DNA of 64,000 bases from Amphiscolops sp. MND2022 (lineage: Eukaryota), in contig OZ076409.1 in the NCBI GenBank assembly GCA_964187785.1, positions 46,006,001 to 46,070,000 of the forward strand, read 5' to 3'. Made by a program: the position numbers and the translations under genes. How positions within the stretch are numbered: position 1 is the first letter of the stretch; every line of letters begins with the position of its first letter. Shown here one piece after another: positions 3,725 through 40,159 of the stretch. Below the pieces are notes generated by a model that was not told where the DNA came from, did not search any database, and worked only from the letters and a program-made list of their open reading frames with translations.

Positions 3725-3777
3725 AACAAAAAACAAAGAATCTGAAAAAAAACGAACATGAAAGAGACCAACGAAAA

Positions 3778-8918: not shown

Positions 8919-8972
8919 AACAAAAAACAAAGAATCTGAAAAAAAAACGAACATGAAAGAGACCAACGAAAA

Positions 8973-9165
8973 TGACGTCAACAAAACGGTGACAAAACCT
9001 AAAGTTGGCTAATTACCAACAAAATTGACGTCGCCATAACGTCGACAAAAAGGCTATTAGGGCTAGAACACTAATCCTGTAAGCTATAATGACGTCATCA
9101 AATCGGTGACAAAAATAAAAGCTAGTTAAAAGCTAGCGAAATTGACGTCAGCATAACGTTGACAA
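8973..9165. promoter_or_regulatory. CRE array, copy B
   Basis: Duplicate of 3778-3970. Confidence 0.55.
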
Positions 9166-9386
9166 ACTTGGTTAAGCGAGCTTCTCAATTCGCAGCCATA
9201 AAAACGCGACCTTGGCAAAACGCTAACTCCTGGGATTAAAAAAGGATTCAAATGATTGATTACCCAATCAGAATGGAGGGATTTATCCTAACATTTTTCT
9301 TAATCCTAACTAATCCTAAAGTAATTGTGAAACACTCAACAGTGCAAACAAGCAACTTGACAATCTACAACCGCTGCTACAAAAAA

Positions 9387-9692
9387 ATGAGCATTTACAA
9401 AGGAACATACGAATTGGTCGACATCTCATCGAGTGATGAAGAGAGGATCCTAGAAAGAGCCTCCACCCCCCTCCCGAGATGTGAGATTCCGAACTACCGC
9501 GTAGTGTTAGAAGTTCCCCATTCTCCCACTGAAGCCACAGTTGGAGATGAAGAATATTTCGACTTGTCGCTAGAGTCTCTGGAATCTGACTGCAGAAGAA
9601 TGAAATTAAATCTAAGCTACGAATCTATTGAATTTGAAGAATCTCCCGAAACAGAATTGGCATTAGAAAACTTGCGGGAAGGATATTCATAG
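9387..9692 (+). CDS. Small acidic protein, copy B
   Basis: Duplicate of 4192-4497 with two amino-acid changes (L>P, S>F). Confidence 0.4.
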   Translation: MSIYKGTYELVDISSSDEERILERASTPLPRCEIPNYRVVLEVPHSPTEATVGDEEYFDLSLESLESDCRRMKLNLSYESIEFEESPETELALENLREGYS

Positions 9693-11042: not shown

Positions 11043-11727
11043 GGAAGACCCCGAAAATGTACCAAATTTACCGAAAAAACCGTTCTTCGGAGCTGTTAAA
11101 ATGACGCTTTTTTAACAGCTTCTGAAATTGCCCAGACTTTACCAATTATGATCGCACCTTCTACGGTTCGCAAGATTTTGTGTAAATACAACCTGAAGGC
11201 AAAAGTTTACCACAAAAATCTTATCATTTCCCATTTTAATCGGGTGAACAGAATCCTTTTTTGCAGAACAAAATTATATGAAAAGTGGACTAAACTGGTG
11301 GGATGTCATTTTTTCTGACGAATCGATGATTGAATTACGACCTACTCGTCGGATACTTATCAGAAGACCACCTAATTTAGGTTTTCATCCGTTATTTACG
11401 CCAAAATTGAAAAAAGTGCCAGCAAAAAAAGGATCATCTGGGGATGTGCCAGCTCGAATGGTTAAAGGTTGATGACAAACACAAAGTCAACGCTGATGCT
11501 TTCTAAAAAAGACACCGATGTTTCTCAACACCGACTTTCTAAAAAACAAGGTTGTACCCTTTCGGAATCTCCAGGATAACGCACCGGCTCATACAGCAGA
11601 AAAAAACGATGGTTTTTTTTTCAAGAGAATGCCTTCACATACCTGGAAAACTGGCCCACTTTATGCATCTATTCCGATACGAAAACAAGAAATTTTGAAA
11701 TATAAAGGATACCCAACGAAATATTAG
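11043..11727 (+). pseudogene. Tc1 transposase pseudogene (copy B, internally deleted)
   Basis: GRPRK, STVRKIL, VIFSDES, QDNAPAH and LENWP are present; SPDLNPIE is deleted; typical Tc1 end SIPIRKQEILKYKGYPTKY*. Confidence 0.9.
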
Positions 11728-17850: not shown

Positions 17851-18934
17851 GTCGCAAACAGGAACAAGTATCGGTTGTGATATTTCAAACGTTGTTTCCA
17901 ATGTTTTTGCGACATTTTTTCCTTTCACTTGTCTTGACAGCAGTAAATTATGTGTGTCACCAGGTTTTCAGAACACTAGGGGCATTTTAGTTGAGACTAT
18001 TCCGTCGCTTTTTCGCTTTCAAACAACTGAGTTTCGTAAGTGTCGCTCGCGTATTTTCCAAAGGCCTCCTAAAACTATGAACGAAATCATTCTTCCATTG
18101 CGCTAGGCTGGACAATACAAACCAAACAAACTTGTGTATTGACAATGTCTGTTTCTGAAGCGGCCCAAGTGTGACGTTTTAGCTTTAAGGTATAAATATT
18201 AGTTTTCTCATGAAAATCAATTAATTTCTGTAAATAATGCATCAAAAGATCCGCCACTGAAACTACTAAAGTTAACCAAGCGAGAACGTTTAAAGTCGTT
18301 GCCACGCCTAATGCCTAAAAAAGCAAAGCTTTTGAGATATGATCAAACCAATTTCAAACAAATTCTCACAAAAATAATAGCGCTCAAAAGACACAAAATG
18401 AGTCCTCCCTACCCGAAACATTCCCCAACTGAACAGCACAGAAACCCTAGACAGAACTTATTTTTTGAAAACTGTTCCAATTTGCCAGAAAATTTGAAAG
18501 TGAGACCCTCCAAGTTCTTAGAACGTATAGCTATAAAAGGTCGTCCAAAAATTTAGAACCGACAATCAACGAATTGTTTCAGAAGATGTTCTGTTTTGTG
18601 CGGAACCATCAAAAACCACTCTAGCTTATTTTGTAGTGCTGCTTTATCCGAGAACAGCGTGATTGGGAAGAAAACGACATGACCGGTAATTTTCACAAGT
18701 TCATCAATTGGACAGCGCGTCAAGACAGCGCATTGAACATTGAGATTACAATCTTGGCCTAGAGCCAAGTAAACTGATATGTTTGATTGTGTTAAATTTT
18801 TACCTCCGATGCCTTGAATCGTGACGATACTCTCTCGACTTTCTGGATAAACCCACTGAGAACAGTCTTCCATTTTGAAGCTACTTTTTACTCCAGAATC
18901 AAGACAAGCGCGACAAATAAAACTTCCATCCTAC

Positions 18935-19663
18935 TGTAACGATAAGCGCTGGCGCTTGAACCGCAACGTAGAGTGGAGGAACTAGAACAGCGAATATAAT
19001 CTGGGACCTAGATCTCCGCGGCTCTAGCTCATTTTCCCTCCGAAGGAGCCCGTCCCAAAGTGGGGGAACCGCCTTGTAGGATACTCTCTGGCCTGGTCGT
19101 AGTCTGTAACTGCTAAAAGTAACAGGCATCTTGCAAGACTCAAGACCACTGCTCAACTAGCCTTTAAAAATCGGGCTGAAAATCGATGAAGGTTGAACCG
19201 TAATATTGGAGAATCTGATAAAATCGCCAAATTGGATAAACAGATGTTAAATAACAGCTCTCGAGCACATTAATTTGTCACATCGAAGAATACAACAAGA
19301 AATCAAGAGTTCAGAGTCATTTGATAGAAATTGACCTCAGCTTACCAGCGCTAGCGCTAGTTGCCACACAGGATACCGCAGGGATACTAAGGTGAACATC
19401 TGGAACACTGGTTTTCTCTACTGTAGTAATGGATATCTCCCAGAGATAGACACAATACCGTGTTCTGTATGCGTTGGGGACGTCTTTTTTGTCGTCTCCG
19501 GTGCTTGTTCGTCGCGAGCGGCGATTTCTGTTTTTTTGGCTTGCTTTTTCTGGCAGGTACTTCGTCTTGAGCATGTTTGAGTGCCACGTCAAATTTGAAC
19601 GAATTTTTGACAAAAATTCTAAACATGTCGGTTGATATTGCTGTACCAGAGCTTGCCGTTACA
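18935..19663 (-). repeat. 3' LTR
   Basis: TGTAACG...CGTTACA; ~25 substitutions relative to 36817-37545. Confidence 0.97.
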
Positions 19664-20419: not shown

Positions 20420-23400
20420 TTATTGAGCCGAACTGCGTCGGGTCCGCTCTTTAGTGGTATCATCTGGAGTCTGTTCTGGGTTATCGGTCGACACTGACGC
20501 TCGACGTCGGGGAGAGACTTCTGTGGCAACCGTTTCAGAGTCCGACAGATCTTCGGGGAGCGACAACTCGGCAATGGGCTGCACTAGTGCTGCATTGGGA
20601 GTCAACTCAGCTGCGTGCTCTCCTGACTGCTGCTGCAAGGACTGAGGACTAGTTCGTGACGAAGACGGGCCAACTGGTTCTGGCTCCAAGTTGTGGGTTG
20701 GAAGGTTAATGGTGATCGGTTGAGAGATGGGCCGATCCAAAGACATCGCCATCGTCGGCGCGAGCATGGTAGGCGCGAACGCCTGTTGTCTCGCTATTTC
20801 TGATCTGCCTTCTACGGCTAATGCGACTCGGCGTGAGATCCACCCAGGTTGGCTCCAGAGCTCGCAAGCTCTCTTCCATTTAGGGAAGCTAGCAATCTCC
20901 AACTCCAGACAGTACTCTTCCCATCTTGCTCGTTCTGTCGAGCCCAACACGGAATTGATCTCATCATGCTGGACGATGGACATATCTCCAGACATGGTCA
21001 TCTTTCCTGTAGGCTTCCATGCCGACTTCCGGGGGAATGGGATAACGCGGGATTGGAGATTTCTTTGTCTGATCTGAGCAGCGCCTTCAATCCATCCTGG
21101 GATCTGGGCTGGTTCCAGGTGCTGGATCTGACGGTTGAAAATCTCAGGAGCGCGTCCAACGGGTTTCGCCCTTGGCCAACCTAACGGTTCCTTCCAATAG
21201 CGGTTTGGGAAGGCGATGCATTTAAAGCAGTACAAAGGGTCTACAGGTGGACCAGCACTAGTGCTGGCGCGAATCGCTTTTCTTATGAATTCCTGACTCC
21301 ACGGGAATCTGAAGGGGACTCCTTCCAAACTGAGAGGTGCGGAGTACCATTTCACAGGCCCATGTTCTCGAGGCAGAGGACATGCTTTCCTTGTGCGCGC
21401 GCGCAATAAACCCATCAGGTTCTCCTCCAGCTCTTTTTCAGACTTCAGGGTCGTATACCCATGCGGCACTTCACCACTCAGCACGGCATATATTACCCTT
21501 GGATATGCCAGTGAGGGACGGCCTCGCAGATAAGTGCTAAAGGAGACCATGTGTACTTGGACTGCTGTTGCTAATGGCTTGGTAGGGTATCGGCACACGC
21601 CCACTGCGCCAAAGATGGGGGCCAGGACGGGAGCCATGGCTGCCACGAAATCCTCTACCTCAGCCAGGGTGAGATCAGCGATCTGCTGCGGCAAGGGGAA
21701 TCCTGCCGTTTCTCGTGGGATTTGCTGGTCTGAGTTGTGTAGTGGCTGGGATTGGTCCACACCCACGAATAGACCGGAGGCAAACACCAGGGTGGAATAT
21801 AGCCAGTGCTGGATCGACGCACGCATGCGCTCCAGTTGGGCGGAACAATCTTGTTGGTCCTTTGAAGTCATTAAATGTCCCCAACGGGTCAGGCTGCGAA
21901 GTTGTCCTTGTGCCAGGACCAAGTAGCTGTAGAAAACGGTGAGGTCGCAGGCAATTACGATGTCGACTAGTAGGGCTAGTGGTCCGGCTACAAACTTCGT
22001 TGGACCCATCGCTAGCGCGAGCGCTAGTATTTCTCCGACAGTTGCCTCTCCAATGGTTTCTGGTAGCTTGTCCGTTTGCGTGGGGGTCAGCAAAAACTCG
22101 GAAGTTAGCACTTCAAGGTTCCATCCCAGACCAAGACTGGTACAGAAGGCTTCCAATGGACAATTGAGCTCTCGAGCTACTTCTGCTAGAGTCCTGGTGG
22201 CAAACCTAGTTTGATACCAATAGGCGTAAGTGGTAGCTGCGGCGTCGACCTCGGCCTTCGGATTGGTTGCTTCAATTGCCACGATGCATCGCAGTCCTAC
22301 GGACAGCTTCACGGGCTCGATTCCTGAGGCGAAGTGGATCTGTGGGATTGTCCTCTCAACGGTGCGCGCTGCAGGCCATGCACCGATTTGTTTTGTCAGC
22401 TCGGCTAACTCTGCACGCACTGGGATTTCTTTGTCCTTTCGCACTAGCCAATTGTAACGACGAACAGCCTCTCGTTCGGTCACATTTGACTCTCGGGCGA
22501 TACGATTGCCATCAAGGTCGAAGGCCATTCTGCCCATCCGCATTCCATGATCATAGAGGATAGCGTCGTCAATGGTTAGCTGGGCATTTCCCGAGCGTTC
22601 TATAGCAACGAGCGCTCTAGATATGGCGGCAAAGAAGGCTGGATACGATAAGGTATCTGGGCGCAGGTCCTCTCGGTCTACACGCAGGTTTGGTGCACAG
22701 ACAGCGAATTCAACTGCGCGCCTTGCATACCTCCAGCAGAATGTAGACGAACTGCTGCAGACTTCGTGGCAAGTACATAAATCCTGGCGGGGTTACAAAG
22801 ACTCCCAAACGACCCCGAAGGATCCCTGCGGCACGTTCCATTGCACCGACAACCTCATTTACTAGGGCTGCAATGTCTCCAGGCCGTCGGACCTCGGACA
22901 TTATGGCGTCTAGATCACGCAGCAACCCTTCGCAAGCCATGTGATCTAGAAGATTGGCAAAGATCACGCGCTGTGGGGGTGGCTCCTTCTGTGATCCTCT
23001 TAGGTTTGGATCGTATATGGCTCCAACCATCTCAGCGATCTCAGCGAAGCGAGACAGGGGCATAGTCAGTACCAGCACGTCAGGCATCAAGTTGTCAATA
23101 GGCAGATCACTCCGGCAGGTAGAATCAACTGCCATGCAGTAGCGCGCGCGCTGCAAAGCTGCTTTCAATAGGGGTTTCAGAGATCTCAAGTTGCGGGCGT
23201 AGCGGGCGTTCGCTTCCCATGTCTCACCTTCTCGCAACACATACCGTGCGGGGAAATGCTCGGTTATGTTATGTTGCAGGGGTGCCATGTAATCGTTAGT
23301 TGTCGTGGGCAGCTGCTCTCGAGCACGCTGTTCCCAAGCCTGCTCCGACATATCTGCGTCACGGGGGCGTAGCGAACGTGTGACCTGCGCCGGTACTGTG

Positions 23401-24460
23401 GTTCGATTGATTTCCTTTTGCTCCGTCTCAGTGGGAGGGGCTCTTTTCTTTATAGCGCATTGACTGGGGTAGAGATGCTCAGCGGCCATCCAAATGCGTT
23501 TGCTATCATTTGTGACTACTGAACCAGATACGTCATCAGATGGAGGGAGGAAGGCTGGAGGGCGGGCCTCCTCCACCGTCTCAGGTATCTCCAGGGACAT
23601 ATCTATTGGATTCGTGCCCGAGGGCACAAAGCTCACTTCCGAGCCTGCATCCGGATCTCCATACTGCTCGATTGCGTCCGCTAGAGACATCTGAGGCGCG
23701 CCTCGGCCTAGATGACCCACTCGGTACGGAGGCCTGGGGATGACTACACTTTTCAGCTGGGGTCGAGGTACATCAGCGCGCTTGTCGGGAGGGGGACGAC
23801 TAGTCGGGCTCTCGGGTACTGAACCAGCTGGGGTGACTGAGGCAGTTTCGTCGGTTAGTCGCTTTCTCCCGGCTTCTTCCCGTGTGCCAGTAGCAGCGCT
23901 TGCGCTGTTGCTTGGTCCAGCAGCAATTTCTACATCCATAGATGCTGTCTCGACTAAAGGAGCAGGCGGTCACAGCCCGAGGGCTGAACAGCAGCTTGCA
24001 GATAAGTGGCTAGTCCAGGGATTCACTGCTCTACGGCACGGACAAAATCGGAGGAGTTCGGATAGTTGGCCACTGCTTGTAATGCCACAATTACGGCCTG
24101 TTCGCTGGTACTCCTTCCAGTCAGCTCTGGGTTAGGTATGGGTGGCAACCGGGACCCCGAGGGCTCCCGATCAGAGACTGGTGCACTAGTAGTGGTTTGC
24201 AGTACCATGTGTGGCGCTCGGTAACCAGCTACTTCCGTCACCAGAGACACAGATACACCTGGCAGCGTCTGCATCGTGTCTAGTTGAGAGAGCAGGGCGG
24301 CCACGCCCGCTACCGCTAACGGTGAGAGGCCGTTCCTCAATCGTTCTTCTACATATTGGACTTGATTAGTCCTCTGCGCTCGCGCAGGCAATTCTTGAGA
24401 CCTATTGCTATGAGGTCCCGTCGTGGGAATAGGCACCGTGTTGTTGGGGTAAATAGCCAT
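20420..24460 (-). pseudogene. Extra ORF3 of the retrotransposon (~1350 codons if repaired), with an SGNH/GDSL-like domain
   Basis: ORFs 24023-24460, 22710-23939 and 20420-22543. After ...VCKAR a frameshift gives VEFAVCAPNLRVDREDLRPDTLSYPAFF...DHG, which runs in frame into the 707-aa ORF. The link to the 145-aa ORF needs one TGA plus one frameshift and is less certain. Confidence 0.75.
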
Positions 24461-24747
24461 TATATCATAGGTCTAAAAAGGATTACCGTTAGGCTTACCA
24501 GGTGCATTGTGGGGAGAGCTTAGGGCTCATCATCCAGTTACAATGGTACAAAGATGGCTCCATAAGGGAACCGCAACAAGTTTAAATTGTAGTTCAACTA
24601 ACTAACTAGAACATAAAGATAGGAGTTATTTAACGATACGTTACGAGGTAATCATTCCTTGGGATAGTTTAAGACTTCCTCCCAGACATAACAATTACCG
24701 GGGTGGATAAATTGAATAGGGGGTAACAGAAAAGAGTTTTGGGCAGG

Positions 24748-27036
24748 CTACTCCGGCCCTATGCTCAAAATGGACACGTACACGCGGTTATGCAGCACAA
24801 CGTGAATGCCAGTGCCCTCAAGCAAATTCGTTAGGGTATGGTACAGGTTTACCAGTGAGAGGGCGGGTCGCTCTGGATCCAGTATAGGTAGGTGGACCCT
24901 CGTGGATCCTTTCTCTATCAAACGCTGTATCAAGTGCGTCATACAACGTAGGTAATCCTCGGTGAGCAGCGGCGCACGCTGATTTGCTCTAATTATCAGT
25001 AAGTGAATACTCTGATTGGGGTTTGGGTTGATATCAGAGGGAATGGTGAGAATCTCTCCCACCTTGGGACGTAGGGAGAACACATTCTCCTTGCCACACT
25101 CCCGTAGCACGTACCGTAGGGCGGCTGAGTTGGTCTCTAGGTCAGCGGGACACGCTAACACCATATCACCTTCTACTTGTAGAAAATCAGTCACATCATA
25201 TGAGAGGTGCTCTGTTGGGGCTGGATACAGAACTCCCGGGTAGATAATTTCTCTTCCCGGCCCATTGTCGGCGGGTAAGCATACGCGGGGCGTGCGCCCC
25301 TGGATTGCAGCCAGGTCTTGCCACACCGAGCGTGGCATCGCTCGATTATCACTGCTCGCTTTGACCCATGTGTCCAGGGTGCTCAAAGCGGCTTTTGGGG
25401 GAAGCGGAATTTCGAATGTATGAGTCCACTCGTCCAGCAATCTAATGCGAGGATAATTGGTGAAACAAGTGATGATTAGTTCCAACCACCACGCGAACTT
25501 CACTTTGCCACGATACCAGTCTATAATGTGGAAGCAAAGTATCAAGTCCGCAGTAGTGAGGGTCCTCAGACCTTCCAAGCAGGACAGCAGGTGCAGTGGT
25601 TCCACTATTGCCTCCACTCGTGGAGCAGTAACCAGCAACCACCAGTGCGGTGATGGGCTGTATACTCCGCCCGGGTTCACGTGAATTCCGTATTTGTCAC
25701 AGAGAAGATCAGCGGTGATGCATCGGACCATTTGCACAGGTTCCCGCTCGAAGTTGAAGGGTCCAAACGCAATATTGCTGGGTACTGGGGGCATCACCGT
25801 AGCGAGGGTAAACTCTAGCCCTTTTCCGTCGCTAGTCCACTCCTTGAATCGAGGGCATGGAGCTTTTGCTACTCCAGGTGATGATAACTTCTCCAGAATA
25901 GTATCCAAGGGATAGTCTCCGCATCGTTCCAGGGAGGAATAAGTCTTTTCAGCTCTCACCGTAAGGCGATGCACTAGATTTTCCCCCCGTTCCGGAGGAA
26001 CTCCCCGGGCTCCAGTGGGAACCCTCCGGTTCTCATTGACGGCTAGCAAGCAGACACAGTCTCGCAGCCCACAGGTCCCGCATTTGTAGCGTGGCTGCCG
26101 CTTGCTTCTCAACTGGTATCGAGGGACTTCAGAAGCCTCGGTCGGCATTGTTGTTTCCGATGGCATTGTTGTTGTTATTTCCTTCTTCCTTGTTCTTGCC
26201 TTCGCTCTGACCAGCCGTTTTCGCGTTTTGGGTGGTCTCCCCCTCCCCCTTTTGAGAGAAGGAGCGGTCCCCGTTCCGGGCAATGTCGTGGGAAGAGTAG
26301 GCACATTGGACTGAGCGTCGTTATCCTCGGTGGGGGACTTCAGAGGGAGGGATGGAGCGGCCGGCCAATTGGGATAGTTATTGAGGAAACTAGTCAGTGA
26401 TGGATTTGTCAATAATGGGGCCCATGTTCCCAATAATGAGGGCTGTTTTTCGGGAGAGGATATTTGTGGTGACGGAGAGCGCGCGCGCTCATGGTCTGAG
26501 AATAGTTGAGGTAGATGATGGGTAGGTGATATTGATTGATCTGAAGGGGGGTGGGGGACTTCGAGCTCCCTACGATCAGCATCAACGGGATCAGGAGGTA
26601 CCGGCAACATGATTTCGGATAACTCATCGTCAGTGCCCGAGGTCGAGTAGTCGAACTGCTGGTAGTGCATGCGGGAACCTCCAGCACGCAACTTTGTGCG
26701 TAGACGGGTATCCATCCAATAGTGCTTGCGCGAAGGCAAGGATACGTCAGATGCTTCTGAAAGCAGTTGTTCAGTTTTATATGAAGGCTGAGACTTATCA
26801 TCGTCAACCACATCGATAGAACGTTCAGGGTCAGGGTCCATGAGTACCACTATTTCGCCGCTGTCCGCTTGCGCGGTGGCGAGCTCAAGGGGCCCACTGT
26901 GATGAGGTTTCAGGCGCTCAAAATGAACCTTTTGGCCTGTGTCCAACACGTAGACACGTCCTTCTTGGAAGACCTGTACTACTTTATGCGGGCCACACCA
27001 GGCACGCATCAGTTTGGGGGAGCCTTTTTGCGGCAC
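24748..27036 (-). pseudogene. Integrase C-terminal extension (GPY/F-like region, AT-hook, Cys cluster, two macrodomain-like units)
   Basis: In frame with the IN core across a single TAA at 27037. Motifs: WCGPHKV...VHFERLKP; KRGRGRPPK; CGTCGLRDCVC; OARD1-like C-terminus. Confidence 0.85.
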
Positions 27037-27910
27037 TTAGCGGCAAAAAACCCAGACAAGCTCTCCTGGCTGGTAGGCTCGTGCCCGAATAGCACGATCA
27101 TTTTTCAATTTTTGGCGTAGCTGGGCCTCGTGCGTATTGCACCGGACCAAGTCGTGAATTTCTTGTTGGCGAGCCAACACATGATCCACATACGCCTCAT
27201 GCGTATCAAAGGACTTGGCTGCAAATTCAGGGTACAAAAAGGTGAGGGGGATTGCTTTCTCAACACCTTTAGTCAACATGTAGGGCCAGAAGCCTGTAGT
27301 GGCGTGCCTGGTAGAATTATAGGCACCGATCACTTCATCTAAGCATTGGTCCCAGTCGCGCATGCGGCGCGAGCAAAAGACTCGCAATAAGGTTAGAAGG
27401 GTGCGGTTTTGCCGTTCCACCAAACCTTGAGTTCGTGGATGTCCGGCGGTGGAGGTCACTTTAGTGACGTGGGCTGCCTTTAAGAACTCATTAGAGACTT
27501 CAGCAGTAAGGTTGGGAGCATTGTCTGATTGCATGCGAGTGGGAGTGCCGTGGCGGGCAAACCATTTCTGCAGCAGCAATCGTGAGGTGGTCACTGCGTC
27601 ATAGTCGTGGTGACTACAAGGGACTGCCTCTGCGAATTTAGAGAAATGATCTATGATGACCAAAATGCCGGTGTTGTTATTATCAGAGGGGCAGATTTTT
27701 AAGTGGTCATACTGGACCAACTCGTTGAAGTAGCCACTCTGAATGTTTTTCAGTTGAAATCGTACGTCACCAGGCTTGTCACGTACTTGTTGGCAGGTGA
27801 GGCACTGGCCGACGTATCGACCGACACTGCGCCGGGCAAAGTGTGGCGCTCTTGAATTCGAGCTACCACTTTTGAGATACCTTGGTGTCCCATGGGGTCG
27901 TGCGCACGGA
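27037..27910 (-). pseudogene. Integrase zinc-binding and catalytic core
   Basis: HDPMGH...(frameshift)...CxxC; VQYDH, IIDHFSKF, SDNAPN, HPRTQGLVERQN (DDE). Confidence 0.95.
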
Positions 27911-29246
27911 ACAGAATCTCATGCTGGTACAGCTGAGGCATTATGATCATGCACGGACGTTCGTGCAATGGGCGTTGGGTGGGTGAGTATTGCACGCAAA
28001 GGACATCATTCTTGTTTATGAACAAGAGGTCCTTTTTCTGGCGAAAATAGTTACGTGCGAATTCACGCACGTTCTCTGGAAACACGTCGTTATCTAGGGA
28101 CTCACACTGCACGAGCTTTTTCAGTGCTAGCACATGGACGTCGCGGTTTTGGGCTAGGACCAAATCCTTGATCCCATGTACGGTATGAGTGTGTTCATGG
28201 AGCTCGGTGTCAATGTCCTTGAGGACCATGATTGACTCGCGCACGCCACAAGGAAAATCCTGAAGCGTGGCGTTATTCGTTCCCGCCACAGAATAGATAG
28301 TGCGAGAGGGGACATTTACTGCATGCGTTGGCAGCAGGTAATCCTCGCTCGCCTCGGTGGTGACGTCTATCCAGTCTTCAGGATAGTCTGGGTAGAAGTC
28401 CTCATGCTTTTGCAGCACGGGTGGAGGCTTGGGCGGTAGAGGTGCGGCTAGCGCCTTTGCCTGTCGTTCTCGCTTATTCGCTCGTTGCACACGGCGAAGC
28501 ACACGAAGTGCTTGGTCAGGAGCCTTAGGTTCCAAGTTCTGCAGATGTGGTGGTAGGTCAGGATGATTTGGAAATATTCGACCTTGCAGGTCGAACCAGG
28601 GAGCTACGGGGAGGTTGTCGAATTCCTCGGCCGAGAGGAAATTCCAACGCTCTCCTGTAGCTGGCAGCTGCGCAAGCTGCTTTTCTCGGCATCGATAATC
28701 GTTGGTTCGTTTGCTCAAGCCATCAGCATTGCGGTGTTGAGTTCGCGGTCTGTGTTCCACACGAAAGTGATACCTGTCCAGCGTCATGATCCAACGTCCA
28801 ATCAATGCTTGGTCTGTGGAGTAGGTTTTCAACCAGGATAGGGCTTGATTATCGACTCTCAGGGTGAACTTTCGGGGGCAAAGGTAGCTGTGGTATATCA
28901 GGATGAAGTAGTAGGCTGCAAACATTTCCAACTTGGGTGCCCCATATTTGGCTTGCGTGGTGGTTAATTTCTTGCTGCCGTATAAGATCGGTCGCAGGCG
29001 TCGCTCTCCTGGAGCTCCTTGCCACTGGTGTAGAATGCCGGAAATGGCAACGGCGCTGGCATCGGTGTCCAGCACAAACTCTCCTTCGGAATCAGGCTGC
29101 GCGAGCGCAGTCGCCTCGATCAATGCTTTCTTGATCTCGTTGAAGGCCTTTTGCTGGTCAGGGCCCCATGCAAACGTGGCATTCAGTCCAGTAACGGCGT
29201 GGAGGGGCGCAACCAGCTTGGCATGCCATGGGATAAATTCACGATA
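27911..29246 (-). pseudogene. RT connection, RNase H and linker
   Basis: FVLDTDASAVAISGILHQ, KLEMFA, FTLRVDNQALSWL, HRNADGLS. Confidence 0.95.
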
Positions 29247-30060
29247 TTAATTAGCGAATCCCAAAAAACTTTGCATCTCTGTCTTGTTGCGAGGGATGTC
29301 CCAGTCGCGCAGTTTGGCAACAGCCTTCGGGTCCGGCTTGACACCTTCTGCGGAGACTACGCGTCCCAGATATTTGATTTCTGATTTCATGAAGTCGCAT
29401 TTGGCTACGCGCATCTTGAAGCTAGCCTCGCGGAGGCATTCAAAGACCTCGCGCAGACGCGCCATGTGATCTTCCACAGTTTCCGTTGCTATGACCATGT
29501 CGTCGATGTATGCCATGACCATGCTGCCTTTGCGATTAACTATTTTTTGTAGCGCTCGCGCTATTTCTCGCTGGAAGGTGGCTGATGCATTGCACAAGCC
29601 GAATGGCATTCTCCGCCTTTCGAAGAGTCCCAACTCACAGGCAAAAGCTGTCTTGTGGCGGTCCGCCTTTCGCAAAGGAATTTGCCAGAAGGCCCAGGCA
29701 AGATCTATGCTAGTGTAGATCTTTGCATTGCCCAGTCACGCCAGGCTTTCGTCGATGCGGTGCAGGGGGTAGGCATCCTTAATGGTTACTTCGTTCAGCG
29801 GTCAGAAGTCACAGCAAAAACGCAACTCCCCGCTTTTCTTTTTTACCATTACGATACCACTTGCCCAAGGGGACAGTGAGGGTTGTATCATCCCTAAGGC
29901 CAGTAGGCTCCGAACCTCCTGGTTGGCTCGTTCAGCCTTTTCGGGGACATTCTGCGAGCACCTTCACGGTGCGGTACAGCCCCAGGCTCTACCTCTATCG
30001 TGTGTTTAGCAATGGTACAGCGGCCAATATCCGCCTTACGCTTCATGAATAGGTCATCAA
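29247..30060 (-). pseudogene. Reverse transcriptase (Gypsy type), with in-frame stops and a frameshift
   Basis: SPWASGIVMVKKK, RFCCDF*PLN, DLAWAFWQI, KTAF, MPFGLCNASATFQ, YIDD, YLG, FLGFAN*. Stops at ~29803, ~29737 and ~29248. Confidence 0.97.
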
Positions 30061-31110
30061 ACTCGTTAAGAATGTTGTCCAAGGACTCGCAGGCGCTAGC
30101 GCCCCAGAGTTTCTTAACTTCTTGCAATTGAGAATCGGGCCCAAGGATCGGGGCCAATAGGTCCGGATCGGTGCGCTTACGAATCTCGCGCTCCGAAAGC
30201 CCCGCTTCACTTGGATCCGTCGAAGACAAAAACTCAAATTCAGATGAAGAAGTCAACTCAGAAGCAGTGGATAGATTCATTTCACTGTACACTTTATAAA
30301 CAAAATTTGCTCGACTGTTGTCGGCTTCAGTTTTGTGGTCAGTTTCTGCAGTAGCATCCAGATTTTGGGGCACAGCCTGGTATACTAAAGACACAGGCAC
30401 TACCGTGCCCAGGTGGGCACCACATCGTACACGCTGCTGGTTGCTGGTGAGGTTTATCAGACTCACATACAATGTTCCTGTCTCACTGACAGTGGCCACG
30501 CTGTCCTCTAAAAAGATGGTATTTTGCAATGAGGGGTCAGACAACGAGGCGTTAAGCGCCACGGTCTGGAAAACTAGTGGTTCAAGCGCGTCGGTGACAA
30601 GTTTAGCCTTTGCCACTGTACGCTCGAAAGGCTGTAGGACCAGGTCACTGTCCAGAGCAATGGGAGTAGTTAGCGAAGCATCACCTACCTGGGTGTGTGC
30701 ATGATGCCAGACGGGCTTCACTGGTGCTCGCACCACTATCTTCATGGAGGTTAGGTCTACCAGGACTTGGTAGGAACAGAGGAAGTTTCGACCCAGCAGA
30801 AAGTCCTCCACACCCATTGCGTCATCTACCACGACAAAATTGGTTTCGAGTTCGTACCCTCCCAACTGGAAGCGTACCTGCTCAGCCAACCCGAAAGTCT
30901 TTATTGTCTTCCCCTTGGCAGCGTACAAATCAGATTGATAGGGTTTCAGGACCGCACCGGTCCTTGCAGCTACCCGGTTAAAGGCGGAGAAGGTTAGTAT
31001 GGACACCCCGGAACCAGTATCCACCAAGCCTCGCAGTGGGATAGGTGCCGCATGGGGCACCACAAAGGAGACAACAAGCGACGCACGCTCATCTATCCGC
31101 GCTTCCCCGG
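30061..31110 (-). pseudogene. Aspartic protease plus a degenerate dUTPase-like beta domain
   Basis: GLVDTGSGVSIL...FLLGRNFL; followed by LVLQPFERTV...VSLINLTSNQQRVRCGAHLGTVVPV. Confidence 0.9.
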
Positions 31111-34100
31111 TGGGTTCTTGTAGTTAATATTATAGCATTTCAGCTCTTGAGGTCCCAAGCATAAGCCGGGTGGGAATACATCTACCACCACACAGGCCTC
31201 GAATTTCACGTCTACGCCGTCCATCGTTGCACAGACTGGTACCGGCGAGTATGTAGTTAGGGTCTCTGACTCTCCAGGGACGTACCATTGCTTTGGGCGG
31301 GGCAACTCCATCCGGTTATAGAGGACAGATAGCTCAACCCAGAGTTTCGCCAAGGTTAGCGTTGGTCTACGCACCTGCTCGGCTGCCAGCATCAGATGAA
31401 TCGAGATCAACGTTCTCCCCTGTGGATCGAACGTGGTGGGCTCCAAGCACGTTTGGATCTGCTTTGTTCCGCATGTAACTATCAGTCGGGGATGAAACGC
31501 TGGAGGTTCCGCCGGGTGCAGCATTAACACGCGATCATCCTCCAGGGGTACAGTGTGGGCGGCCACACCAGCGGATTCCACCTCGGCCCATCGATTGTAG
31601 GCCAATTCATCATTAGGCCATGGAGCTTGAGAATGCTCACCGCAGGGGACATCCACATGGTCATAGACTCCACAGTGCGCACACTGATGAATGCCTGGAT
31701 AATTCTCCAACACGCCATCAGTTACGTCTTCAGCAGTGACTTTCACGCCTTCTGGCTCGGGAGCTGCTACTGGTTTGCGAGCCTGATCGCGGGTGGGACA
31801 GTCCCGGGCAAAATGCCCAGCTTGACCGCAATTGAAGCATGCGCCAACGGGTAGGCGTGCCGCAGGCTGCGCTGCTGCCTGATTTGGTGGGGCAATGCTC
31901 GCAGGTGGGGGAGGCATTACTCCTTGTGGTAACACCATTTTGTTGGGGGGTAGTGGCGCAAAGGGATGAGGTCTAGACCTCATTGCTAGTCTGGGGTCAT
32001 AGGGTTGAGGGAATTGGTTGGTTTTTGGACGATTGCGCTGCAATTGGCGGGTGGTGAAGCGAAGGGATTCCACCGTAGGTGGTTCGGTCAGGAAGACTTC
32101 CGAGGCATACACTATAGCAAGCTCCCGCCTCAGCGCTGGGTCTCGTACGCCTTCCATGAAGCGCTGAAGGATTTCGTAGCGCTTGGTAGTGATTGCCTCT
32201 TGCGGGAATCCTTGACTTCTAAGACCCTCTAGAGCGTCTAAATACTGCATCCAGTCTTCTTTCTCATGTTGAATGCGGCTCTGAAAGGCTTGTCGTACCC
32301 GCATACGATTTCTTCCAGCGCCAAAGCGGCTAGATAACAATTCAAACACCTTCTCGGGGGTGTCGCGTTCGGATTCTGCTTTGTTAATGATGTAGTTGCG
32401 AGCCTCACCCTCAAGGTGACCAATAATGCTCCAGGCATGGTCCTCGGCTGAGACCTTGGTTTGCGTTCTCTTCAGATATCTCTGCATAATAAGGATCCAC
32501 CCATCAATGGATCCGTCTTTGGAGCCGCGATACACATTGGGTCTCGCCTGAGCCAAGTCTCTACCGGCGAGTAAAGGCGCTAACTCTTTTGACTTCGCCT
32601 TTGATATGGCGGCCGTGAATCTCAGCTGCTCGGGGGATATGGCTTCTCCTTCTTCGATCTTAGCTTCCCCCTCACGCGTCCTGTCATGGATACCAAGAGT
32701 GGCTTGCATTGACAGGTCAGCGATTTCGTCCTTCTTGCGAGTGCTGCTGGCACAGGGAGTGCCCGAGGGCAGTCCATGATCGGCTGACAAGTCTGCGGTC
32801 AAACATAAGGAGTCTGGTCCTGACATCGAAATAGGGGCAGTTGCAAACGTTGCTCCCTCGGTTTGAGAACCTAGGGTTGCCTTGGTATTGGATAAGTCGA
32901 CTTCAACCGAAGAATCAAGGTAGATTATTGACATCGGGTCCACGCCTTGATCGCGAGTAGTGCCCTGGGCTGCAGAGGGCATTGATGACTCTGCTGAGTC
33001 GTGATGTCCGCTCATCTGCACTCGTGCAGGCTTGCGCTCTGCATCAGGCGTGGTTATCACCAAATTTCCGGCTGCTCCTTCATCTTTCCGGGGCGCAGGC
33101 ACCGTCGGTCTGGAAGCGCTAGGCTTCAACGCACTTGGCAGTTCCGGTTTCACTACTTGGCTCGAGTACGTCGGCTCCGAGACACGGACTGGATCTCCAT
33201 TCCGCACACCTCCACTGGCACTGGGCTGCCGCGGGAGTGACCTCTCACGCCTCATGACATCAATGGCATTGAGTACTGTGTGCATCTGATTGCTTAAGTC
33301 GTTGATCTGCGTTTCCACGCGCAACTCGCGAGCCATCAACATGTCATTCATCTCTCCCATCCGGTGACCCAATGTGTCCACTCGAGCATTTTGCACGTTC
33401 TGCGCGGTACGCAATTGATCACTGACTTGCAGAACCTCACGCATCGTCGTCTGCATCACTTTAATATTTTCCACGATGGCAAGATGTTGCTCATTGCACT
33501 CAGCACGAGTGCTGGCCAGACCTGCTAGAGCCCGCTGGGTTTCGGCTCGGGCATCTAATAGCGCTGCCTTGTACACCGAGGACCGTTGCGATGAGGCCAA
33601 TGAACCTGTCATACTCCTAACACGGGATGTCTCCTGACGAGGTTCGCCTGCATGCAGTTTGGGTGGTGGCACCTTCTTGTGCTTTCCGTAGGCACAGATC
33701 CGAGTAGGTCCTCGAGTGGTCCCGAGTCCTCGCGGTCTCGCGTAACTCATGCCTCCCACATAAGTGGGTCCTGCTCCATGTCGGTCTGTGAGCCGAGTTG
33801 TGCCTCTCCAGCCGGGGGTGCGCGCGAGCACCCTTCCTCAGCCACCAATTCATCGGTTGCATTCGAATTGGGCCAGCCCTCCTCCACTTCATTGGTTCTA
33901 TCGCGGCAGGTTTCGTCGACCCACTGCTCGGTTCGACGCGAATTCTCGGAAACACTTGAATTCTCGGAGGGAGGAACCATAGCGGCCAACTCCTCTTTTC
34001 GCTGTTGTTCGATAGTGACTTCATCAGACATGTCGTCTGAAAAACGCGAACCATCTATCGTGACCCACGATTGTGAACAAGTATGGGGCACCGCCATCAG

Positions 34101-34112
34101 TTCGGTGGCCAA
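31093..34112 (-). pseudogene. Gag (coiled coil, capsid-like region, CCHC knuckle) plus a degenerate protease-like module
   Basis: 912-aa ORF with IDGWILIMQRY...HLEGEARNYI...FQSRIQHEKEDWMQYLDAL (capsid-like) and CFNCGQAGHFARDC at ~31798-31839. The upstream 33747-34112 ORF is probably its broken N-terminus. Confidence 0.9.
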
Positions 34113-36783
34113 CGCGTTTTATTAATAGCGATCGAGTTACCGCTCACGATTACTCGGAAGACTCAAATTGGGTCGCCGATCGCACTAGGGTCTTCAATTC
34201 GAGGCTGATCCCTTGGTCGTCCCGGTGAGCACTTAAGAAATTTAATGCTACTCAATGTCCTAGATTTTTCGAAACACGTTCTAGAGCTCGTAGGCTGTTC
34301 AAATTTGCACAGCGTTTTCCCACAAGCACACTGGGCCAGAAAATCAACCTGGTTTACGACAAAAAGTCTCCAGTCACTCACAGGAAGAATTTCAAAGAAT
34401 TTTAGGATTTTCCAAAATTCGCACGACAACACTCAAGAGGCTCGTGTGTGCGTTAGAAGCGCTGTATCAAGCCCAAAATTGACCAGCAGATCTTAGGTGC
34501 ACGTAGATTTACAAAAATGAACACAGTTTTGAGCTGCGCCCCTTCTACACAGTTTCACCTAGGTACAGACGTGCGGTACCACTATGTACCGAAATACACT
34601 GTTTTTCACGTCTTTTTCAAGAATGCGGTCCACTGGAAAGAGCTAGCAAGCTCAAATTCTCTGCAGCAACGTAAGAACTAGCACAAGTTACGATGGTGGG
34701 CTACAATATAGCCCCACCCGTCGGCCAGGGTGCCCGGGTTACTTGGAAAAATTAAGAAAAAACTGCCTTTTTGCGCACTTTTTTGGGTGCCACGTTTTTC
34801 CTATTTTCTCAACAAGTATCACACAGTTCGGCACCAAACTTGACAGTTTATGCCAGTGGGCACCTACAATGCCACTGATATGGTCGAATTGAAGCGCGAG
34901 CGCTTATTTGAGGTTTCGACCTACTATGTACGTTGTACACGAAAAAACACTGTTTTGGACTACTTTTTTCACAAATTGACCAAGAGGATCACCTCAGAAA
35001 GTGATACGGCGGGCAAAATGGGACCAACGTGTTGCCCCACTATCCGTAGCACTGGGATAAACCCTCAATTGGTTGTGCCCGTTAGGTATAAGGCACTGAT
35101 AGTCCGGCAGTTTTGGACTTTTTCGGTCCTTTTATGCTTTTCTGAAGTCGAAACGTCAGAGAGCTTTTCTCGACTTTGGTGAGCGATACGCTCACCAAAT
35201 TTTTGGTACTAACGTTAATTTTTGTGGTGGTTACGAAAATGCAATCACTTATTGGCTAGGGTTCGGGAATCGATGACTCGACCCTAGCTTAGAGGCAGTC
35301 CGGTTTTGTGGAAAATTGATCAAATTCAGTGCGTTTTTCCACTTTTCTCAGCACTGAATGGGAGTTTTTACACGCGGTTTTCACCACCACGCGTTATTTT
35401 TACTATAAAAACAGAAGATGAGAGCGCGCGGGCTCCCAGGTCTCGAAAACACTGAGTGCCCCAGGGGTCTTGATGATGCACTCTGGCACTCCTGAAACTG
35501 GCCAAAAATCAAGGTTTTTCAACTTTTCTCTACACTGAAAAGGAGTTTTTACACGCGGTTTTCCCCACGATGCGTTGTCTTTGCTGCTAAAATCGAAAAA
35601 GAGAGCGCTCAAGCCCGCTCTCTTCGAATAAGCTTCGCTCTGGGTATTTTTGGTTAATGCACTTTCTCTGTTCGAAAATGCCAAAAATCCTAAGTTTTTC
35701 GCACTGTATCAGCACCAGGCTGCCTGAGTCCGCTACAAAAGTTGCAATTAGTATCCTGAGGGTCAACTACACTTGGGGCAATACCGTACACTGCCGTTTT
35801 GCACTTCCATACTCGTGTACGTTCACATTTTAGGTGCCTTTTTGGCCAAATTTCCACTTTTTCCACATTTTTCGGCGTCAAATTGGCACTTTTATCACAA
35901 TCAAAGGCTTCAACTTCAACTTTCGTGCCTCGTGCCGGCTTTCTCGAGCCTTGCAGCTGCTTTTTCAAAACTTTCCACCAAGCTTTCCTGGGTGCTTTGA
36001 GCACTAGTGCTCGAAACCAAGAAAAACACCAAAAAAACGCAAAAATGAGGTTTTTTCTCCAAGTGCTATCTTTTTCACAGAAAAGCACTTCGTAGGGTGT
36101 CGTTACATTTATGGTAGAACGTCACTGACCTGCACCAACAATTCTCCATCGAAAGAGGTGTATTTTCAAAATTTTTGCCAACCATACTCCATCTGAGCGA
36201 CACATCTGGTCATAGGGGGTGCATCTTCACCACGTTATTTCTCCACATCTAGACCAGACAGAAACACGCGGGTGGGACCATTAGCACCGTCTGTCGTTGC
36301 ACTTGCTGTCCACCAAAAACCATGCCTCTAGGACGTCTCCACGAGAAATGGGAATAGGAAGTAGGCAACACGAGGTTTGTCCCCTCCTTCGCCTCGCTGG
36401 AATATGGTCGACCATCCATCCGTTACCCTCTTGCATGACATAAAATGGCTGAAAATAGCTCAAAAAACCTGTTAGACACCCGTAGCCACGTGCTACGGTC
36501 CTCTGCGCCTGCAAAAAGGTACCCGCTGATGGGTACACAACACATCACACATAAAGAGCGATTTCCTTCTAAAATGCCCAAAAATACCATTTTCACACCT
36601 GAAAACACGTTTTCTTCGGCATTTTCTCTGGTTCAACGCCTCTCCCAGTTCCAGTAAGACGTAATACGACTAAAAAAGGTAAAATTCTGCTTCTCTCTCC
36701 TGTCCAGAGTCGAAAACGGGCTTGGCGCTGATCACCAGGGGGCCAGATCTTTTAAAAACTGCTAGGGAAAGCTTCCCAAGACG

Positions 36784-36801
36784 ATCCCTCTGTGGTCGCC
36801 A
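36784..36801 (-). promoter_or_regulatory. Primer-binding site, tRNA-Arg-like
   Basis: Minus-strand TGGCGACCACAGAGGGAT is complementary to a tRNA 3' end ...UCCCUCUGUGGUCG-CCA, which resembles animal tRNA-Arg(UCG). Confidence 0.75.
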
Positions 36802-36816
36802 AAAAATGAGTTTCTA

Positions 36817-37545
36817 TGTAACGATAAGCGCTGGCGCTTGAACCGCAACGTAGAGTGGAGGAACTAGAACAGCGAATATAATCTGGGACCTAGATCTCCG
36901 CTGCTCTAGCTCATTTTCCCTCCGAAGGAGCCAGTCCCAAAGTGGGGGAACCGCCTTGTAGGATACTCTCTGGCCTGGTCCTAGTCTGTAACTGCTAAAA
37001 GTAACAGGCATCTTGCAAGACTCAAGACCACTGCTCAACTAGCCTTTAAGAATTGGGCTGAAAATCGATGAAGGTTGAACCGTAATATTGGAGAATCTGA
37101 TAAAATCGCCAAATTGGATAAACAGATGATAAATAACAGCTCTCGAGCACATTAATTTATCACATCGAGGAATACAACAAGAAATCTAGAGTTCAGAGTC
37201 ATTTGATAGAACTTGACCTCAGCTTCCCAGCAATAGCGCTAGTTGCCACACAGGATACCGCAGGGATACTCAGGCGAACATCTGGAACACTGGTTTTCTC
37301 TACTGTAGTAATGGATATCTCACAGAGATAGACACAATACCGTGTTCTGTATGCGTTGAGGACGTCTTTTTTGTCGTTTCCGGTGCTTGTTGGTCGCGAG
37401 CGGCGATTTCTGCTTTTTTGGGGTGCTTTTTCTGGCAGGTACTTCGTATTGAGCATGTTTGAGTGGCACGTCAAATTTGAACGAATTTTTGACAAAATTT
37501 CTAAACATGTCGGTTGATATTGCTGTACCAGAGCTTGCCGTTACA
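36817..37545 (-). repeat. 5' LTR
   Basis: TGTAACG...CGTTACA; 729 bp. Confidence 0.97.
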
Positions 37546-40159
37546 TACCATTCAAGAGATGCACGAAAGCTGTAGCAAGAATTCTTTGACTATTTGATTA
37601 GCGTAACTGAAAACTTTGAGAAAATTGATCAACCAATATGATTACTGCGGTTGACTCATCATGAATGAAAGAACGATGTCGAAGCATGTCGCTGTTTCGG
37701 CTTTAATGAACTTGCTACTGACAATTGAAAACAAAAAATATTTGTTTCGACGAACTCCTTCATTTTGACGATTGTTGAAGCAAGGAACTTTTGACCAGCG
37801 TAGAAATTGTGCGTATGCTTACAGACCGGAAATCTTTCTTGCTCTGTTACATGAGCAACGAGCAACATTTGCGCTTTGGGCGTCTGATTTTTCAAAAAAG
37901 CAGCTTCAATACCGTTGCTCTATTTTCAACCAACGTTTTTAAAGCGCTATGAGACAAAAAAAAAACCGTGCCTGAGTTTTCGGAGGCGTGTTGCTCCCAA
38001 ATTTTTTCAGCTACTGCATCAAAGCGTTCCGTGACTACGTAAATTGGAATAAACGATCAAAAATGGGCGCGGACGCTGCACTGTTGAAGATAGGGATTAC
38101 ATTTGTCCGCTGTTTTGATTATCTTCCTCGATACCGTAACGGTTTTTGCTTTTGACTGCGTTAAAACTAACAATAGAAAGGAAATGTTCGCGAACAATGA
38201 GAATTTTCTTCTCCTAACGCTTCCGCAAAAGATTCAGCGTGACACTGTACTTTGTCTTTGTGATCGTCAGCGAACTTCGACAAGGTTCTTCTTTCGCAGA
38301 TCTTTTTGGGTACTGTAGGATTTTTTATCTGTTGTTTGAATCGACAGAGGCCTTATGAAAATCAATGATCGAAATCCATTTATTTTAGCATCCGGAAAAA
38401 CAAAGCATTTTGAGTTTCGATATTTTGATGTTCTTTGTTGACAAAATAGAGTCTTTAAAAGAAAAACTTGATCACCAAATTATCACTTTTCCTCGAGTTT
38501 AGGCTGTGCGTTGTGAAAAAAACTTTCGGCGACATCGATATAACGTCAAACCTTCTGTAGTAGGTCAATTCTTGCCCGATGTTCACATTCAACATTCGGT
38601 GTTATCACTTCAATTTGAATGCTTGTCAAAGCGAGCGCAAGAAGTTCTTGTGAAGATGTCGCTTCGACTTGATCGAAGGTTACGCCATTTACCGATCTTG
38701 GGACATGTGCAAAAGATGATTAAAAAAGTAGTCAACGTAATTGCACGAAACGTTTGTGTTAACAAAAAAGCAGAACCAGGAGTGCTGCAATCTCCTGTGA
38801 TTCGAAAAAATGAGTTAAAATTTTGTTTCAAACAAAATACACACAACAAAAGCATCATGACTCGTTGAATAGAAACCTATTTTCAGCGATTTTTTGCGCG
38901 CAAAGGTTTCACACTAGCTAAAATAGTCTTAGTACATTAGAATCTTGGCCACAGCTACGCTCGTTGCTGATGTGCTCATTTAACCTGCTCAAAGAAAACC
39001 AAACACTAGAACCATTCGCTGCATTCCATATCTTGTTGAAAGTTATGGATTCGCATGAACCCGTGAGTGAACGGTGTTCCTCCAATGTTTCCAGTGAATT
39101 CTATGCTCTTGTCTTAGAATCGCAAGCGAAAGTGGGGTGGTCACAGAGTCTTAATCGAGCCAATACTGGTGCTTGATTTGCTTTCAGAAGGTTCACTATT
39201 CCATTAGAAATAAGTGAGAGTTCTGTGTGGATTCTTGATTTCCGATTCCGACTAAGGAAGTTGGCAGCATCATAGAGCTTCAAAGAAGCATATCTTTCTG
39301 CTCTGAAAAATTAGGCCGTTTCGCAACTTTGGATTAAAACTGATAGTGACATCTTGACAATTTCGAAAAAAAGGCGCTTCACAATTATGCATATTGAAGA
39401 TGAAGAACTCAAAACTGGAAGTGACTTCACAGAAATAGACAATGATATTTCTAAAATTTTAGGGGCAGAACAAAGAGAATTATTTTTTAGTAGGAAATCG
39501 TTGATGGTTGAAAACTTTGTCAAAGTTTCGAGAGTTTCAGGAATGCATTCTGTTAGTTTTTTCTTCAGCTGTGAGCTTCGCATTGGCGATTGTATCAGCC
39601 ACTTGACTGACAGCCATGTTGATATTTCAAAGTTCTTTTCTGTCGACCATGTTGCTCCATGGAAGATCATCATGACAAAATGGCCATTGTGATTCATCAA
39701 AGTTCACTGTGTTACAAAAAATTTGAAGGATTTTTTCTCGAATTGAGATTGTTATGCTGGTTATTAGGATAATCGAAAGTTTTACGTTTGAAACTGTTTT
39801 AGTTAATTTTAAAAGTTCTTATATTTCAAAATCAAAACTTCTGAACAACCCTAATAAATGCGTTGCAACCATCGTATATTAAAAACGTGTTGCTCGTTTT
39901 CCAATGCTGAATTTTTGTTATTTTGATTTTAAAGTTTTAACAGCAATGTTCTATTTGGAAAAAAATCACAAGAACTTGTCCAGTCGACAATTTCTGATCT
40001 TCATAACTTTTTTTTCCAAACAGCTTGTCTTGGAAGCAAGTTTTCAAGATTTTCAATGTTGAGACGGTTCCATGCTTTCAAACCCGACTTTTTCTCTTTA
40101 GTAACATAAACAACCAGTATCTGCCACATCCAATTAAAAATCTTCAATAACAACACGAA

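Follow-up and report, generated by a model that had tools for sequence, protein, structure and literature searches.

The sequence studied here is a window of 64,000 nucleotides (contig OZ076409.1 of Amphiscolops sp. MND2022; the window always means this whole stretch), and the system in question is an 18.6-kb Ty3/gypsy long terminal repeat (LTR) retrotransposon on its minus strand. The part under study is the end of the pol gene of this element. There, behind the integrase, lie two tandem units which are predicted to have the fold of human TARG1 and which, judged by their residues, have lost the catalytic apparatus of this ADP-ribose hydrolase. Amino acid numbers refer to the 762-residue stop-to-stop open reading frame (ORF) at 24748-27036 on the minus strand. 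In coding order the units are:

25429-25779, minus strand (ORF residues 420-536): unit 1, a putative shortened TARG1-like pseudo-macrodomain with Ala or Ser at the position of Lys84 and DxYRG as loop 2; the first Gly loop and its helix are absent.
24784-25224, minus strand (ORF residues 605-751): unit 2, a putative full-length TARG1-like pseudo-macrodomain which ends pol; Asp20 is kept, Arg stands at the position of Lys84, loop 2 reads DPER, and a C-terminal HxRVY strand is present.

The relatives of the window tail comprised 88 proteins among 5197 candidates; a further search gave 253 cluster representatives at E<=0.001, with matches listed for 150 of the 253. When a profile of 77 relatives was compared with 177,635 PDB sequences, unit 2 gave five matches at E<0.01, all of them human TARG1/C6orf130 (best E 1.3e-5), and the match spanned nearly the whole domain, corresponding to the length of unit 2. 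ORF residues 403-762, which contain both units, were modelled with AlphaFold2; the model had a mean predicted local distance difference test score (pLDDT) of 85.5 and a predicted template modelling score of 0.53; owing to the latter, the relative placement of the two units is uncertain. With this model Foldseek returned TARG1 on ranks 1-8 (best E 2.7e-9, template modelling score on the target 0.83). VIA-align superimposed unit 2 on TARG1 with Z 15.6 and a root-mean-square deviation of 3.0 over 141 aligned residues, followed by DarG at Z 14.1. For unit 2 the predicted TARG1-type macrodomain fold is thus confirmed at the level of models. ESM Atlas features of unit 2 pointed to phage clusters without a name and, at 0.90-0.91, to one Macro cluster, which we take as a lead only. 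Single-sequence searches of Pfam, PDB and PHROGs with the units of the window yielded nothing relevant; a PDB match of the single sequence to a PARP1 zinc finger (E 2) was dismissed as chance. When longer proteins were sought with the profile of unit 2 in a word-limited search, only 19 already-known family members came up among 8000 scored candidates. A homodimer prediction for the two-unit fragment, run without an alignment, scored 0.00, a value from which we draw no conclusion for or against a dimer.

Unit 1 was modelled without unit 2 (ORF residues 304-582, pLDDT 83.3). All eight Foldseek matches at E<=0.001 were TARG1, the best at 5.1e-5. VIA-align gave Z 10.7 against TARG1 (root-mean-square deviation 2.7, 115 aligned residues), a score tied within one Z unit with those of BT1257 (10.2) and DarG (9.9). 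Profile searches with unit 1 found no sequence-level match to TARG1, so that its assignment is drawn from the predicted fold together with the similarity of its profile to those of its paralogues. An HHalign comparison shows the two units to be homologues (probability 92%, pairwise E 6e-7). For unit 1, too, the models confirm a predicted macrodomain fold of the TARG1 type.

In the window the tail appears as a separate frame of 762 residues because an in-frame stop at 27037-27039 cuts it from the integrase core. Relatives read through. One of them, P0239, is a natural unbroken frame of 2998 residues in which a gag-like region, protease, reverse transcriptase, RNase H, integrase and both units follow one another; in P0034 and P0063 one frame covers integrase and unit 1, and in P0065 it extends over both units. 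A preliminary description of this DNA had proposed two tandem TARG1-like macrodomains at the end of the integrase, in the C-terminal pol position where chromoviruses carry their chromodomain. The motifs that it quoted and the 762-residue frame are all present, its unit boundaries agree with those given above, and the Foldseek comparison predicts a macro fold for each unit with TARG1 on the top ranks, VIA-align likewise placing TARG1 first for each. The four relatives bear out the position behind the integrase in a Ty3/gypsy pol.

Identity between the window and P0239 is 81% in the reverse transcriptase, 66% in the integrase, 64% in a Cys knuckle upstream of the units, 46% in unit 1, 40% in unit 2 and 9-28% in linkers and flanks. 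Besides the units, the tail contains the following parts:

26227-26250, minus strand: RGRGRPPK in the low-complexity linker, which we take from the motif to be AT-hook-like; [RK]GRP occurs in 58 of the 63 relatives whose sequence extends far enough upstream.
26050-26121, minus strand: an RYxLR motif and a CxxCxxxxCxC knuckle, the one that is 64% identical to P0239, in 57 of 63 relatives.
25783-25977, minus strand: a beta-rich module of 65 residues before unit 1 (EKTY...RFKEW...GLEFTL), pLDDT 73-94, 41% identical to P0239 and conserved across the family.
25225-25428, minus strand: a two-helix connector and a strand leading into unit 2, as seen in the model of ORF residues 403-762.

Many of the 63 relatives behind the AT-hook-like and knuckle counts are near-identical. 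The knuckle is likely to bind zinc. The beta-rich module gave no known structural match in fold searches that barely probed it, the module having been modelled only together with its neighbours. Pfam found no chromodomain in the tail of the window or in P0239; the folded parts are predicted macro folds, apart from the beta-rich module, which is without a match.

The element that carries this tail has gag, protease, reverse transcriptase, RNase H and integrase between paired LTRs in Ty3/gypsy order, as established by Pfam and by tblastn with P0239:

36817-37545, minus strand: 5' LTR, 729 bp, TG...CA, with 25 mismatches over 730 aligned positions relative to the 3' LTR.
31102-32901, minus strand: gag with a PNMA-like capsid region and a CCHC knuckle (Pfam zf-CCHC E 7e-8; PNMA E 0.0016, below cut-off; tblastn with P0239).
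29936-31174, minus strand: aspartic protease region (Pfam gag-asp_proteas E 2e-5; tblastn with P0239).
27831-29945, minus strand: reverse transcriptase, RNase H and bridge (Pfam RVT_1 and RT_RNaseH), with in-frame stops near 29804, 29738 and 29249.
26900-27918, minus strand: integrase core and C-terminal domain (Pfam rve E 1.6e-9), containing the stop at 27037-27039.
24023-24472, minus strand: an open frame of 149 residues after pol, no Pfam match.
18935-19663, minus strand: 3' LTR, TG...CA, with a purine-rich tract just before it.

A primer-binding-site-like stretch starting with TGG is separated from the 5' LTR by a 15-nt spacer, and a leader of about 3 kb without a long ORF extends between the 5' LTR and gag (window 33837-36817). 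The reverse transcriptase is closest to Ty3/gypsy (Ty3 E 1.6e-25 versus foamy virus 5e-16, among 18 PDB matches). Compared with the unbroken relative P0239, the copy in the window is broken by three frame changes and four in-frame stops; the first of the frame changes could be a programmed gag-pol shift. At the outer ends of this one copy (18915-18934 and 37546-37565) we found a 3-bp match, GTA, where a target-site duplication would have 4-5 bp.

The residues of the ADP-ribose pocket were located by way of the ungapped segments of the unit 2 profile alignment, in which the catalytic Lys and Asp stand 41 residues apart. The numbering Lys84 and acid 125 follows PMC7050489, which gives the acid as Glu, whereas the PDB sequence has Asp. 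For unit 2, 29 rows were counted, from 121 matches covering at least 70% and thinned at 80% identity (two rows belong to a sister lineage described below); for unit 1, 29 rows came from 139 matches. In unit 2, Lys84 is replaced by Arg in 27 of 29 rows and kept in one, and none of 26 rows has Asp or Glu at 125. In the first Gly loop Gly41 is never found (0/26) and Gly43 once, with Ala in 22 of 26. Gly121 of the second loop is likewise never kept, being Asp in 26 of 27 rows, and Gly123 is Glu in 22 and Gly in three of 27. In unit 1 the position of Lys84 is Ala or Ser in 27 of 28 rows (Lys in one), no row among 28 has an acid at 125, Gly123 is Tyr or Phe in 23 rows and Gly in one of 28, and loop 1 is absent together with its helix. 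The Asp20 position of unit 1 is mostly Asn, in an alignment of uncertain register. Hence the replacement of the Gly loops and of the catalytic Lys/Asp, as the preliminary description had it, extends across the family. Lacking Lys84, acid 125 and the Gly-rich loops, both units are classed as pseudo-enzymes from their sequence.

The Glu at Gly123 of unit 2 has an experimental counterpart. In human TARG1, G123E, G43E and I44E each abolish ADP-ribose binding and activity according to PMC5928194. Given the replacements in the units, the canonical ADP-ribose pocket is predicted to be closed. This weakens the proposal, made together with the first description of the units, that they read ADP-ribosylated chromatin or decoy PARP-based defence through the usual pocket.

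The most distant relatives, P0220 and P0221, are closer to TARG1, P0221 matching it on its own at E 6e-5. Searches with these two identified 23 relatives among 379 candidate stretches in metagenome contigs, which we refer to as the sister lineage. Its contigs are mostly 1-3 kb long, and six of the 23 (L003, L008, L009, L014, L019 and L022) reach a second macrodomain upstream. That of L008 (28-495) matches TARG1 (2EEE) at E 5e-24 and keeps Asp20, Gly41, Gly43, Lys84, Gly121, Gly123 and Asp125; by its residues it qualifies as a TARG1 hydrolase and looks intact. L022, L019, L014 and P0300 keep Lys84 or Asp125 where these are covered and have changes in a Gly loop. In L003 the intact-looking domain follows an integrase which is 49% identical to that of the window family, in P0300 integrase and intact-looking domain share one frame, and in L014 the end of the intact-looking domain and the downstream copy share one frame with two stops. 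The order of the sister lineage is thus integrase, intact-looking TARG1 domain, unit 2 orthologue; it is pieced together from several loci, no single one of which has the whole series unbroken.

The downstream copy of the sister lineage is orthologous to unit 2 (HHalign 99.95%) and is dead by the same marks: Arg replaces Lys84 in 23 of 23 loci, Asp or Glu replaces Gly121 in 21 of 22, and Asp125 is missing. Its median ratio of nonsynonymous to synonymous substitution rates (dN/dS) is 0.12. The value was calculated for the sister lineage alone, from those 19 of 136 pairs that were not saturated; the pairs are not independent of each other. All 136 came from the 17 loci with enough aligned codons; six loci were dropped, and the other 117 pairs were saturated at synonymous sites. 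The dead copy of the sister lineage is under purifying selection. It would be conceivable that the units are functionless host sequence which was captured and is now decaying, as the loss of active-site residues and the several breaks in the window copy might suggest. However, the same replacements are fixed across families that are 30-45% identical, the units are more identical than the linkers around them, and a dN/dS of 0.12 in the orthologue is not what decay would leave. We regard decay as hardly credible.

In HHalign comparisons the profile of unit 1 scores 95% and 92% against the dead copies but 3% against the intact domain, and unit 1 shares the D-x-x-R loop of the dead copies; for these reasons it is likely, from sequence, to have arisen from the dead lineage. 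A profile search of the 23 sister loci found no counterpart of unit 1, of the module before it or of the Cys knuckle, only cross-matches to the pseudo-domain. A word-limited search for longer proteins with the intact domain returned one protein among 90 candidates, the sister pseudo-domain was found in none of 204 viral contigs, and the window's own family in none of 88 metagenome stretches. In genome contigs the latter gave one match, L024 (1-1009), with 43% identity to the tail; being a 1-kb contig in a Bacteroidota bin, it is likely to be eukaryotic DNA misplaced in a bacterial bin.

A possible interpretation of these results, which we hold with somewhat less than even confidence, is that the units form a non-catalytic docking module, a tether that accompanies the integrase and attaches to a chromatin partner of the host or to nucleic acid. 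By this scheme an ancestor of the gypsy clade would have acquired a TARG1-like ADP-ribose hydrolase at the end of pol, and the captured hydrolase would then have been duplicated. One copy would have lost Lys84 and Asp125, gained Arg and the D-x-x-R loop, and been retained by selection. The sister lineage would have retained the enzyme together with the dead copy; the lineage of the window, now without the enzyme, would have come to carry a second, shortened dead copy. Together with the AT-hook-like motif and the Cys knuckle that closely precede the units, the tail could act as a chromatin- or nucleic-acid-associated tether and so bias the insertion sites of the element. Docking would go through conserved surface Arg residues, not through the closed ADP-ribose pocket. 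The argument for a tether is the chromodomain-like position of the units and the neighbouring AT-hook-like motif and knuckle. In unit 2 the conserved Arg residues are at ORF positions 641, 645, 656, 683, 723 and 751 (22/28, 28/28, 23/28, 27/29, 25/27 and 19/19 rows, respectively).

Several findings weigh against a tether. A low-complexity linker of 300 residues lies between integrase and units, and there the protease of the element could release the units from the integrase. In P0239 the units carry net charges of -1 and -3, so that overall they are not basic, and with a charge so near neutral simple nucleic-acid binding is disfavoured. A tree of 30 domains leaves the order of the duplications unsettled; unit 2 and its sister orthologue group with a support of 89/75, in a place where long branches meet. 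As stated, selection was measured in the sister lineage, not in the window's own. Finally, the pocket keeps some of its parts: unit 2 retains Asp20 (22/25 rows), which in TARG1 presumably has a role in adenine binding, and Asp37 (22/26), and the sister orthologue retains Gly123 in 21 of 22 loci. It is thus possible that the nucleotide pocket of unit 2 is remodelled. Moreover, SCO6735 lacks the catalytic Lys/acid pair, yet is classed as a hydrolase and hydrolyses, as reported in PMC7050489.

These last points bear on another explanation, namely that the units still bind ADP-ribose, poly(ADP-ribose) or a related nucleotide via a remodelled pocket and serve as readers or decoys. Besides the two Asp positions of unit 2 and the Gly123 of the sister orthologue, the almost invariant Arg which takes the place of Lys84 both in unit 2 and in all 23 sister loci would fit a remodelled site, and members of the ALC1 class can function without the canonical pair (PMC7050489). 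Yet neither of the Gly loops that bind phosphate is left in place, and with Asp at 121 and Glu at 123 acidic side chains reach into the path of the diphosphate. Moreover, G123E is the very change that abolishes binding in TARG1 (PMC5928194), and unit 1 is entirely without loop 1. We therefore consider nucleotide binding fairly unlikely. The idea of an action against ADP-ribosylation, going by the residues, fits the intact-looking TARG1 domain of the sister lineage better than it fits the units of the window.

The conserved Arg residues and the Cys knuckle are equally what one might expect if the tail bound the element's own RNA or cDNA in the particle, for packaging or chaperoning, with no role in the choice of insertion sites. 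In PMC5928194 the G123E and G43E forms of TARG1 still bind RNA, and the authors assign RNA binding to surface patches; binding of RNA by TARG1 is thus independent of the pocket. On the other side, Gag already has a CCHC knuckle, and the net charge of the tail units is near neutral. Furthermore, the particles of most LTR elements contain Pol only in minor amounts. A function of this kind appears improbable to us, and the docking module remains the reading with which we proceed.

Downstream of pol and of the 149-residue frame the element has two further ORF parts in different frames:

22710-23969, minus strand: first part; its C-terminal 150 residues match L008:4821-6128, a degenerate SGNH-like ORF (BLASTP 26% over 160, pairwise E 8e-5); no Pfam or PDB match.
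20420-22792, minus strand: second part, an ORF of 790 residues in another frame, whose start continues the match to L008:4821-6128 (29% over 58, pairwise E 1e-7), with the remainder unassigned; no Pfam, PDB or ESM Atlas match.

The downstream part of L008 (3482-6131) contains an intact-looking SGNH esterase-like ORF (Pfam Lipase_GDSL_2 E 7e-6, below cut-off) and then the degenerate SGNH-like ORF, which matches the extra ORFs of the window (20420-23969) across their frame change. The SGNH-like ORF common to both ties the two lineages together beyond pol. By sequence, a pattern of an enzyme plus a dead copy occurs twice in this clade, once with TARG1 and once with SGNH. Envelope proteins were considered for the extra ORFs and found not persuasive, the 790-residue ORF having only two marginal hydrophobic windows (about 2.0-2.1). 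As a separate observation, the contig end of L008 carries the beginning of the TARG1-like domain once more, immediately behind the degenerate SGNH ORF (1-495 and 6071-6409, 95% identical), which suggests a tandem or rearranged 6.1-kb block without an integrase between.

The tail might instead be cut off by the element's protease and act, together with the pseudo-SGNH ORF, as a lone counter-defence protein which occupies the partners of a host macrodomain or PARP. The long disordered linker would suit such a release; two kinds of enzyme-derived dead domains are kept in both lineages, and PMC4245714 describes degenerate TARG1-like domains as common in viral genomes. However, no cleavage site was identified, and the C-terminal fusion to the integrase is constant in both lineages. 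We give this explanation little credence.

Elsewhere in the window three repetitive regions were seen. At 1062-11443 there is a 5.19-kb tandem duplication, 99.3% identical, each unit of which has a minus-strand open frame of 311-344 residues without a Pfam match. An open frame of 2660 residues at 53388-61367 (minus strand) consists mostly of 102/108-bp and 144-bp tandem repeats and has no Pfam match, and at 63098-63800 about 18 diverged 38-bp repeats form an array.

Macrodomains are well established as counter-defence tools of RNA viruses, but to our knowledge there is little documentation of ADP-ribosylation acting against LTR retrotransposons. Such a role could be probed directly and cheaply with an integrase that is joined to an intact-looking TARG1 hydrolase. 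The dead copies kept in two distant lineages provide a natural series from enzyme to pseudo-enzyme as well as a candidate module for integration targeting. In addition, TARG1-like matches that are taken for host genes of invertebrates may be parts of retrotransposons. Taken further, the gypsy clade might have captured an ADP-ribose eraser against PARP-based control of integration or silencing, after which its duplicates became a new class of integrase targeting domains, a 'macro-virus' counterpart of the chromoviruses, with the pairs of enzyme and dead copy in TARG1 and SGNH as a repeated design. We offer this wider scheme as a speculation that is doubtful rather than probable.

Poa1p-like macrodomain annotations exist on some arthropod gypsy polyproteins, and capture of macrodomains by gypsy elements may be wider than our searches show. 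Literature searches by title and opening of the abstract, mostly among open-access papers, found no description of TARG1-like domains at the integrase end of gypsy elements. Macrodomains are not mentioned in the main texts of PMC13524379 and PMC9040795. There is precedent for the capture of macrodomains by retroelements: fish epsilon-like endogenous retroviruses have macro-domain ORFs (Basta et al. 2009, as cited in PMC4977317). What appears to be new, as far as these searches go, is the pair of TARG1-like pseudo-macrodomains at the end of a gypsy integrase. The fish elements, compared here by description only, differ in being retroviruses in which the macrodomains are additional ORFs.

The closest known protein is human TARG1/OARD1/C6orf130 (4J5R, 4J5S, 2LGR), of the ALC1-like class, which is the top structural match of both units and the sole significant sequence-profile match of unit 2. 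Unlike TARG1, the units are without Lys84, Asp125 and both Gly loops, share the new D-x-x-R loop, form a tandem and are joined to the integrase of a retrotransposon; in addition, unit 1 is about 25 residues shorter. The next structural neighbours are DarG, BT1257/SCO6735 and yeast Poa1p (Z 12.8-14.1 for unit 2, 9.3-10.2 for unit 1). One of them, SCO6735, likewise lacks the Lys/acid pair (PMC7050489); all of them, however, are stand-alone enzymes or antitoxins, with no sequence-level match to the units. As to the downstream ORFs, the Vesta LTR retrotransposons of bdelloids have a GDSL/SGNH ORF3 after pol, as has L008 and, in degenerate form, the window (PMC5408684). The main text of the Vesta paper mentions no macrodomain, and the sister lineage here has an intact-looking and a degenerate SGNH ORF in tandem. 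In its position the tail most resembles the chromodomain of chromoviruses, likewise a host-derived reader fold C-terminal to a Ty3/gypsy integrase (PMC13524379). The fold is a different one, and it is by analogy with the chromodomain that a targeting role may be proposed for the macrodomains.

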